From Escherichia coli (GTDB taxonomy: Bacteria; Pseudomonadota; Gammaproteobacteria; Enterobacterales; Enterobacteriaceae), in assembly GCF_003334815.1 (NCBI RefSeq), contig NZ_QOWO01000041.1: DNA of 33,046 nt; one strand, written 5' to 3'. The position numbers and the translations under genes are program-made. The notes under the pieces are model-generated. The model worked only from the letters and a program-made list of their open reading frames with translations, was not told the DNA's origin and searched no databases. Positions within the stretch are counted from its first letter, which is position 1; the number at the start of each line of letters is the position of its first letter. Below, one piece after another: positions 2,529-3,607 of the stretch.

Positions 2529-2890
2529 CATTCATTCCCCATTTCGGTGATGGTCAGTTCCAGCCTCCCACCTTTGGTAACAGGCATCTTCACAACGCGG
2601 TAATCAACGACCTGAGCATCATCCAGCCAGAAACCTGCTTTAGTGAGTGCGTCAAAAGCGGCTTTTTGCAGATTATCCAGGTCACGGCGACGGCGATCCG
2701 GCATGTGGCACTCAATGCGGATTTTCACAGGGATAGCCAGGCCGATATCCAGCATTGCGTTTTTAATGATTCTGGCGACGTTATCGCGGTATGCCTGCCC
2801 CTCTGCGCTGACGTGCGTGCGCCCGCGATTATGGCGGTAATAGCGATTATTGCTCGGAGGCCAGGGTAATGTGATGCTGTAGGTATTCAC
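2528..2890 (-). CDS. rusA: RusA Holliday-junction resolvase (120 aa)
   Basis: [42 protein letters not shown]... recognised as lambdoid RusA. GTG start at 2890 overlaps the upstream ybcO-like stop (GTGA). Confidence 0.9.
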
Positions 2891-3015
2891 GCCTTAATAA
2901 TCCCCTCTTTCAGCCACATAACCTGTGTTTTCGCCATACCTTCCAGCGCGCATTCTTTTGCATATGCAGCATCGACTTGCTTGGCATGCCCTTTACCGGC
3001 AATCTTCTGTATGCG
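2887..3015 (-). pseudogene. ybcO-like (DUF1364) C-terminal remnant, interrupted by in-frame stops
   Basis: Frame ending ...[27 protein letters not shown] resembles the DLP12 YbcO C-terminus. Two TAG stops lie immediately upstream in this frame (3016-3024) and no N-terminal Cys/His motif is present. Confidence 0.35.
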
Positions 3016-3154
3016 CTAAACCTAGATAGAATCCACTCTGTGCTCATTGAAGCCCGCTCTATGCTTCCTTTCAGGTATTGAAGGGATTGAGATGGGCTAA
3101 GCATTATTGGCCTCCTGCATCAGGAGAAAGACAATCATGGCGGCGCGGAGAGGT

Positions 3155-3607
3155 CTGGTAGCCTAGGGAAAACAGTACGAGAACGACGCCAGAACTCTGT
3201 TTGAATTCACTTCCGGCGTGAATGTTACTGAATCCCCGATCATCTATCGCGACGAAAGTATGCGCACCGCCTGCTCTCCCGATGGTTTATGCAGTGACGG
3301 CAATGGCCTTGAGCTGAAATGCCCGTTTACCTCCCGGGATTTCATGAAGTTCCGGCTCGGTGGTTTCGAGGCCATAAAGTCGGCTTACATGGCCCAGGTG
3401 CAGTACAGCATGTGGGTGACACGAAAAGATGCCTGGTACTTTGCCAACTATGACCCGCGTATGAAGCGTGAAGGACTGCATTATGTCGTGGTTGAGCGGG
3501 ATGAAAAGTACATGGCGAGTTTTGACGAGATGGTGCCGGAGTTCATCGAAAAAATGGACGAGGCACTGGCTGAAATTGGTTTTGTATTTGGGGAGCAATG
3601 GCGATGA
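3155..3607 (+). pseudogene. exo: Lambda exonuclease (exo) 5'-truncated remnant with an in-frame amber codon near the homology start
   Basis: ORF 3218-3607 encodes ...[57 protein letters not shown]...GFVFGEQWR, the C-terminal ~150 aa of lambda Exo. Homology continues upstream in frame to about 3155 ([17 protein letters not shown]) with TAG at 3164-3166. The N-terminal ~75 aa of Exo are absent. Confidence 0.75.

Follow-up and report, generated by a model that had tools for sequence, protein, structure and literature searches.

Laboratory lambda lysogens survive induction through deletions that cover the kil-N-cI-O-P interval. In the chromosome of Escherichia coli K-12, prophage DLP12 sits at argU with intD and carries an internal deletion which places a 5'-truncated exo head-to-head with a right-operon gene. 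Its immunity genes are gone, as are O and the ori inside O; P', ren and ybcN have been kept, emrE has been gained and the porin gene nmpC is broken by IS5. The right arm of DLP12 runs ybcO-rusA-ylcG-quuD-porin-essD, and insertions supplying a promoter are required for adequate expression of its rusA (PMC4118853). The decay of prophages into 'grounded' or cryptic elements has been described in general terms in reviews (PMC6379469).

Here we describe such a scar in an E. coli element contained in a stretch of 33,046 nucleotides (contig NZ_QOWO01000041.1, assembly GCF_003334815.1), referred to below at its full length as the window. An earlier note on this DNA had proposed that a deletion joins a truncated exo to the nin region with loss of the Red, immunity and replication modules, and this is upheld by alignments to phage ev017 (NC_049948) and to the TUM1887 prophage as well as by the null results of tblastn searches. 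The window scar is a fresh instance of a well-known kind of decay. Like DLP12, the element has a right arm of the type given above (98.2% identity to DLP12 over 1692-2976) and an internal deletion that took the immunity genes, O and the ori inside O and left a 5'-truncated exo head-to-head with a right-operon gene. Unlike DLP12, it lies at att-lambda with lambda int and xis, and its porin gene is intact. It also resembles the lambda survivor lysogens, in that the same functions appear to have been lost in one deletion and that a harmless, locked-in remnant would be left; those lysogens were however selected in the laboratory, and the comparison is a lead.

Results

Site and left arm of the element

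Prophage DNA occupies positions 78-7244 of the window and the E. coli chromosome follows from 7291 onward, where ybhC begins, the remainder of the window being the chromosomal run ybhC-ybhJ-...-mod-gal-...-nadA. The att core GCTTTTTTATACTAA has a single match within the window, at the prophage boundary beside ybhC, and 0 of 100 shuffles gave any match. The DNA homology to lambda stops at 7244, and in the sister genome 52F4 the attR core is found beside ybhB, whereas attR of the source strain falls outside the window. We hold with high confidence that the element is a defective lambdoid prophage which occupies the attachment site of lambda and is flanked by ybhB and ybhC. The features kept in its left arm are the following:

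3598-5850, plus strand: lambda b-region/early-left accessory genes, kept (PHROG matches, PGAP annotation in 52F4)
5890-6108, plus strand: xis, intact (tblastn, 98.6% identical to lambda Xis)
6086-7156, plus strand: int, intact (tblastn, 99.2% identical to lambda Int)
7230-7244, minus strand: attL core, the prophage boundary, adjoining ybhC

The accessory block comprises orf60a/DUF1317, orf63/DUF1382, an orf61-like gene, a TraR/DksA-like gene, ea22', an ea8.5-like gene and a 55-aa ORF; it shows 97-98% DNA identity to lambda and is now without pL. The early-left operon lies on the plus strand and reads toward attL. Lambdoid gene order is found in both arms, as int-xis-ea8.5-ea22'-...-orf63-orf60a-exo' in the first and as ninX'-ninF'-ybcO'-rusA-ylcG-Q-porin in the second. 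The element very probably combines a left arm of lambda type (int-xis-b-region-exo) with a right arm of DLP12/82 type (nin-Q-porin-lysis).

The prophage is interrupted by an IS10 end, which is observed at window 1-77 with the insertion at 77/78. The only Rfam match was RNA-OUT in this IS10 end, and 78-7400 gave none.

Right arm and nin-side remnants

An OmpC-family porin gene on the plus strand, to the left of the junction, is intact, and the following genes and gene fragments were placed between it and exo:

1922-2305, minus strand: quuD, Q-type late antiterminator, intact (PHROG 79, E=4e-53; quuD by PGAP in 52F4)
2391-2531, minus strand: ylcG, small nin-region gene, intact (NCBIfam NF033498, 75 bits against a cut-off of 30; annotated by PGAP in 52F4)
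2528-2890, minus strand: rusA, Holliday-junction resolvase, full length at 120 aa (PHROG 34, E=2e-57)
2887-2976, minus strand: ybcO' (DUF1364), last 29 codons and stop (25/29 identical to the K-12 YbcO C-terminus)
2977-3046, no strand: 70-nt spacer, part of the ybcO'/ninF' mosaic joint (99-100% identical in ev017-type phages and many prophages)
3047-3104, minus strand: ninF', P22-type, start of the gene (58 nt, 19 codons), placed through its alignment with P22 DNA
3097-3160, minus strand: ninX' (DUF2591), reduced to its last 20 codons and stop, where the deletion ends on the nin side

RusA is 99.2% identical to the ev017 protein over residues 1-120. Beyond rusA, homology to K-12 DLP12 ends at 2976, the spacer at 2977-3046 is covered by neither the DLP12 nor the P22 alignment, and 3047-3160 is 93% identical to P22, the start of ninF and the end of ninX being placed there by offset. 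Lambda NinF gave no match in the window. Residues 94-113 of ev017 NinX are matched at 20 of 20 positions by window 3159-3100. NCBIfam returned no match for the 29-aa ybcO' and the 20-aa ninX' fragments, which are too short, and the identities of both rest on the DNA and protein alignments.

Together with 27 phage records, 584 of the 5,426 complete E. coli genomes contain the same ybcO'-spacer-ninF'-ninX block with a whole ninX and match 2960-3160 at 99-100% identity; in ev017 the block constitutes the 206-nt gap between ninX and rusA. Because the same fragment is present in intact phages and in these 584 genomes, the deletion did not break ybcO; indeed, this distribution indicates that the ybcO break is an older mosaic joint of viable phages and not a product of the deletion. 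The earlier note had taken that break for the nin-side endpoint, which instead lies inside ninX at 3160. It had also placed a broken ybcO-like fragment, followed by rusA, about 140 bp upstream of exo, and both are present, but the distance from the end of ybcO' to the junction is 184 bp. Filler DNA or an IS remnant at 2977-3157 was considered as well and was rejected, as 2960-3160 is contiguous nin-region DNA elsewhere.

Structure of the deletion junction

The junction was mapped by aligning the window three ways, to the nin and exo arms of ev017 and to the exo of TUM1887, which gave the following features:

3159-3160, no strand: deletion junction, TA common to both parental sequences, zero filler
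3161-3607, plus strand: exo', lambda-type, codons 79-226 and stop (3605-3607), a pseudogene without residues 1-78

On the minus strand the nin sequence is unbroken to 3160, and on the plus strand exo runs from 3161. In the base-by-base alignment, identity to the ev017 nin arm is perfect through 3160, after which the exo arm takes over; at a larger scale, window 78-3160 aligns with the late/nin arm of ev017 and 3166-4921 with its exo/early-left arm. The two sides correspond to distant, colinear positions in the ev017 record (coordinates 33660 and 43854), and the exo breakpoint in TUM1887 is at 16001 of the locus compared (L011). Homology to lambda DNA begins at 3161, which is lambda nt 31794, and homology to TUM1887 begins at 3159. 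In the comparison with lambda and DLP12, advised in the earlier note as a means of locating the breakpoints, lambda homology thus begins at 3161 and DLP12 homology ends at 2976. The abrupt start of exo, without its N-terminal third, is as that note described it, but homology starts at 3159-3161 and not around 3155.

The fusion joins exo codon 79 to ninX codon 94. Its exact sequence is …GGTCTGGTA followed by GCCTGGGG…, and the parental TUM1887 sequence at the exo breakpoint reads …GCGCTA/GCCTGG… (the stroke marks the breakpoint). Two loci about 10 kb apart in intact phages match the sequence on either side of the junction at 97-100% over kilobases, and for this reason the junction is not a product of chance. 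Since TA alone is shared and there is no filler, the join is illegitimate, with 2 nt of microhomology. A longer microhomology was also considered and rejected: CTGG occurs near both breakpoints but out of register, and only TA is shared with the closest parent.

The flanks of the join bear on the possibility that a mobile element or a site-specific event made the deletion, either by IS-mediated adjacent deletion or by aberrant Int/Xis excision. IS elements are active in this family (IS10 here; IS21, IS3, IS5 and IS1 in relatives), and Int and Xis are intact. However, both flanks are phage DNA, there is no IS end or other IS sequence, inverted repeat, att-like sequence or filler at 3159-3161, and the only att-core match in the window lies 4 kb from the junction, at 7230-7244, which makes such an origin extremely improbable.

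The lost segment

Relative to ev017, 10,193 bp are missing (record coordinates 33661-43853), a size that depends on the comparator, as the nin module of TUM1887 is ybcN-ninE-ybcO and not methyltransferase-ninX. The missing ev017 genes are exo codons 1-78, recT/bet, gam, kil, cIII, ral, sieB, N, two exclusion-type genes, the repressor, cro, cII, O, P, ren, ninB, a DNA methyltransferase and ninX codons 1-93. With lambda and ev017 versions of the genes as queries, tblastn gave 0 matches in the 33-kb window for bet, gam, kil, cIII, N, rex, cI, cro, cII, O, P, ren and ninB; this agrees with the earlier note, which had listed bet, gam, kil, cIII, N, cI, cro, cII, O and P as absent. Furthermore, the ORF space of 78-7290 is wholly filled by other genes, and since all of its ORFs are accounted for, other immunity types are excluded. 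The absence of a repressor, N, O, P and ori is found both by tblastn in the window and in the annotation of 52F4.

Of the undeleted relatives that we found, the prophage of TUM1887, which occupies the same site next to ybhC, comes closest, with 99.95% identity to the window over 3159-7400 and 98.8% over 78-2976; unlike in the window, its two arms are separated by gam, bet, full exo, an S24 repressor, a cro-like gene, ydaT, O, P and ren. As for ev017, it resembles the window in having rusA-ylcG-Q-porin-holin after methyltransferase-ninX-(ninF'/ybcO'). In contrast to the window, ev017 and TUM1887 keep the 8-10 kb from exo to ninX/ybcO, which hold bet, gam, kil, cIII, N, repressor, cro, cII or ydaT, O, P, ren and ninB.

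The junction in other genomes

Among 5,426 complete E. coli genomes, 52F4 is the only carrier of the junction. It is 99.97% identical to the window, with two differences in 12.9 kb (78-13000), at 3165 and 4218. An identical junction is also present in GCA_900450225.1 (a 4.66-Mb NCBI contig) and in the Logan assemblies of SRR31950732 and SRR25064170. In GCA_900450225.1 the int gene carries IS21, and IS3, IS5 and IS1 are seen in other relatives.

This recurrence in independently assembled public data answers the question of an artefact, which the earlier note had raised. A chimeric join of two prophage fragments could be imagined, given that prophage repeats often break or mis-join short-read assemblies and that the window starts inside an IS10 end, suggesting a contig break. 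Yet the junction is identical in the complete 52F4 genome, in GCA_900450225.1 and in Logan assemblies of unrelated runs, and the 2 nt shared by its two sides are no repeat able to cause a mis-join, so that the probability of an assembly error is close to nil.

In 52F4 both att cores are present and the element is bounded by ybhB and ybhC. From the ybhB side its order is a cargo pair (AAA ATPase, HNH nuclease), a hypothetical gene, tail-fibre genes, lom', J'/terL', nohD, ylcI, ybcW, ybcV, bor, rzpD, rrrD, essD, porin, quuD, ylcG, rusA, ybcO', ninX'/exo', b-region genes, xis and int. A second deletion in 52F4, at the terL'/J' join, removed the head and tail genes, and on this gene content no virions are therefore predicted.

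The complete element also allowed us to weigh a rearrangement in place of a deletion, namely that the immunity and replication genes were relocated within the prophage, as an inversion or a transposition might do. In MLI110, IS5 and elaD abut quuD, so that remnants of this type can join large rearrangements, and what lies to the left of window position 1 in the prophage of the source strain is out of view. However, the annotation of the complete 52F4 element from ybhB to ybhC, which has the same junction, lists neither a repressor nor N, O or P, and tblastn found no match to these genes in the 33-kb window. The earlier note had named repressor and replication genes elsewhere in the prophage as the finding that would overturn a deletion; 52F4 holds none, and a rearrangement is very improbable.

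We also weighed a hybrid of two resident prophages, with the left arm from an att-lambda phage and the right arm from a DLP12-type remnant. Prophages at the DLP12 site, TUM9803 among them, match 2960-3160 at 100% identity, the RusA, YlcG and QuuD proteins of TUM9803 have the same accessions as those of 52F4, and free recombination among lambdoid phages favours a hybrid. Against this, the ybhB and ybhC flanks and both att cores indicate that no chromosomal rearrangement accompanied the event, and the 52F4 genome has one rusA/exo place only. Moreover, both arms match one att-lambda family (TUM1887, 98.8% and 99.95%), and TUM1887 and 52F4 share identical accessions for OmpC, Bor, YbcV, YbcW and YlcI. 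A junction without homology would be an illegitimate join under the hybrid scenario too. We regard the hybrid as unlikely, and a deletion within one att-lambda prophage as the preferred reading; since TUM1887 differs in its nin module, this prophage may have exchanged DNA with another one at an earlier time.

Truncated exo, the TAG codon and the junction ORF

Residues 78-226 of lambda Exo correspond to window 3158-3604 at 96.6% identity (tblastn), and 77-78 of the 226 residues (34%) are gone from the N-terminus. Consistently with this truncation, PDB lambda exonuclease chains align to exo' from residue 81 and PGAP labels exo' in 52F4 as 'missing N-terminus'. Two further features lie at the junction:

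3164-3166, plus strand: TAG replacing Trp80 (TGG), a G-to-A substitution at 3165, specific to the window
3137-3607, plus strand: junction-made ORF, from the translations of the window and of 52F4

The exo frame of the window is thus interrupted by an in-frame TAG, as the earlier note had reported, but the codon is a later substitution and is TGG in all other junction carriers examined. Three junction contigs (L013, L014 and L015) all read GCCTGGGG, that is, TGG. Because both 52F4 and the outgroup TUM1887 carry G at 3165, the A of the window is derived. These comparisons identify the TAG as a point mutation that arose after exo had been inactivated, separate from the breakpoint.

The junction ORF starts with an ATG (3137) and eight further codons from antisense ninX and continues with exo codons 79-226; an AGGAG (3122-3126), also in antisense ninX, precedes the ATG. 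It is open in the sister genomes (156 aa) and closed at codon 10 by the TAG in the window, and exact copies of the 156-aa product occur on 13 public contigs. For a 129-aa ORF downstream of the TAG, a look-up returned unrelated prophages with exo frameshifts.

There is a small chance that the deletion made an accidental new translatable gene, the truncated Exo being perhaps expressed and selected against and rusA-Q-porin-lysis perhaps being kept by selection. The basis for this idea is that the sole window-specific substitution in 12.9 kb relative to 52F4 is a nonsense change at codon 10 of the junction ORF. A random substitution in the 12.9 kb would be nonsense in this ORF with a chance of ~0.16%, which is a post hoc figure, and for a nonsense change in whichever ORF of the same region the chance rises to several per cent. 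The nonsense change in the junction ORF is probably coincidental, and no promoter is evident. If the idea were true, repeated Red-to-nin deletions would keep rusA-Q-porin-lysis as a host-serving unit and discard the lethal core.

Analogous scars in E. coli

At least seven distinct Red-to-nin junctions were found in E. coli, and they share one architecture, in which a left-operon stump faces a nin-region stump and the modules for immunity and replication have been lost:

Window and 52F4, at att-lambda: exo79 facing ninX94
MLI110, at att-lambda: bet120 facing ybcN'
PI12: gam/bet facing a ninE-like fragment
W21, at argU: exo58 facing methyltransferase 61
FG92-1, with intD (DLP12-type): exo10 facing ybcO'
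TUM9803, at argU: bet' facing P'
K-12 DLP12, at argU: exoD' (from ~108) facing peaD' (P131)

As their breakpoints differ, these scars represent separate events, though some may be nested successors. The exoD'/peaD' scar of K-12 DLP12 itself is analogous to the feature singled out in the earlier note and makes it less unusual.

Discussion

The origin that we propose with high confidence for the window scar is one deletion by illegitimate recombination, of ~10.2 kb, which fused exo codon 79 to ninX codon 94 and also took pL/oL, pR/oR and the ori within O. In the window strain, the TGG-to-TAG change in exo' and the IS10 insertion at 77/78 came later. A deletion from kil through P may be the simplest one-step escape of a lysogen from killing by its own prophage, an idea that rests on classical lambda genetics. 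Escape by a single deletion would explain why analogous scars are found in independent lineages.

With pL, pR, both operator sets, N and the repressor lost, the element is expected to lack an SOS-responsive switch and N antitermination and to make no early-promoter transcripts, and with O, P and ori lost it should be unable to replicate. In lambda, xis depends on pL and int on the cII-activated pI. Because xis is left without pL and int without a cII-activated pI, excision is unlikely and the element would be locked in, and this despite int, xis and attL being intact.

On the other side of the junction, rusA-ylcG-quuD now lie downstream of antisense exo' and not of pR-cro-cII-O-P-nin. That rusA and Q no longer have pR, pL and N on their upstream side, a point which the earlier note had made for pR, follows directly from the extent of the deleted segment as aligned here. 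Around the junction, a consensus scan found 5 promoter-like sites where 3.9 +/- 1.9 were expected from shuffled sequence, which is no excess. Given that pR is gone, that promoter-like sites are not in excess and that DLP12 rusA provides a precedent, rusA, ylcG and quuD are probably silent or nearly so.

For annotation, the element may be described as a predicted locked-in, non-inducible and non-replicating remnant which, judged from its sequence, should pose no threat of lysis or transduction. For exo', ninX', ninF' and ybcO' the proper label is pseudogene fragment; rusA, quuD and the porin gene remain intact yet are severed from phage regulation. The junction itself is a handy lineage marker for a small clade (52F4, GCA_900450225.1 and several sequencing runs). 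The Red-to-nin scars of E. coli, at least seven in number with this one, illustrate convergent prophage disarmament and open no new question.

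The porin gene and the IS10 end

The porin gene of the prophage lies between quuD and essD, and the window itself begins within an insertion element upstream of it:

1-77: outside end of IS10/ISVsa5
591-1733, plus strand: intact OmpC-family porin gene (NCBIfam 'porin OmpC', 518 bits)

The counterpart of the porin gene in the K-12 cryptic prophage DLP12, nmpC, is split by IS5, whereas the gene of the window is intact; the viable phage ev017 carries the same porin gene as the window prophage. The 77 nt at the window start are a multi-copy repeat found at a median of 2 places per genome (maximum 45), an ISVsa5 transposase adjoins a copy of them in another genome, and Rfam matches RNA-OUT to window 1-32 on the plus strand. 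This IS10 insertion is absent from 52F4 (the complete genome carrying the same prophage), from TUM1887 (which has the closest undeleted att-lambda prophage) and from ev017. In 52F4 coordinates, the insertion site falls between the lysis genes and the porin gene, 14 bp ahead of the start codon of essD. The pOUT promoter of IS10 reads outward, which in the window we take to be towards the porin gene, there placed at 651-1733.

exo frameshifts and the b region

In four prophage loci that otherwise look intact (L017, L018, L023 and L025), a set biased by the mode of its retrieval, through the 129-aa ORF, exo is split into ORFs of 97 and 129 aa by at least three different 1-nt deletions. These fall in a GGGG run and an AAAA run around codons 80-82 and in TTCCGG near codon 96, and the in-frame TAG of the window adjoins the position of the GGGG and AAAA runs. 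The 1-nt deletions could be either true slippage mutations or homopolymer sequencing errors.

Across 12.9 kb, the only difference between the window and 52F4 besides position 3165 is found at 4218. Here the derived base is the one in 52F4, where it changes Leu to Phe in the orf61-like protein, which therefore receives a different PGAP name, 'ZapA'. Further on in the b region lies:

4559-5110, plus strand: ea22-like ORF (183 aa), whose 52F4 counterpart lacks the C-terminus according to PGAP

Homology to lambda is broken at 4588-4810 and again at 4922-5086; the region is another mosaic or decayed spot.

Related prophages in 52F4 and other genomes

Outside the window, the 52F4 prophage has a second internal deletion (1067-2708 of locus record L001; 23369-25010 of L004), in which the large terminase, of which the N-terminal part remains, runs straight into the C-terminal part of the tail-tip protein J. 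Virtually every head and tail gene is lost through this deletion. The far prophage end, adjoining attR and ybhB, where lambdoid phages often hold accessory or defence cargo, contains:

L004 14742-19029 (52F4): AAA-family ATPase, HNH endonuclease and 410-aa hypothetical protein

GCA_900450225.1 (whole locus) carries the same junction as the window and its prophage is more decayed: quuD is split into two ORFs, as is the porin gene, and int is interrupted by an IS21-family element. In the att-lambda remnant of E. coli MLI110 (L002 7166-8906), quuD is the end of the remnant and abuts IS5 and a truncated elaD, implying that IS5 mediated a large rearrangement of the chromosome that ran through the prophage.
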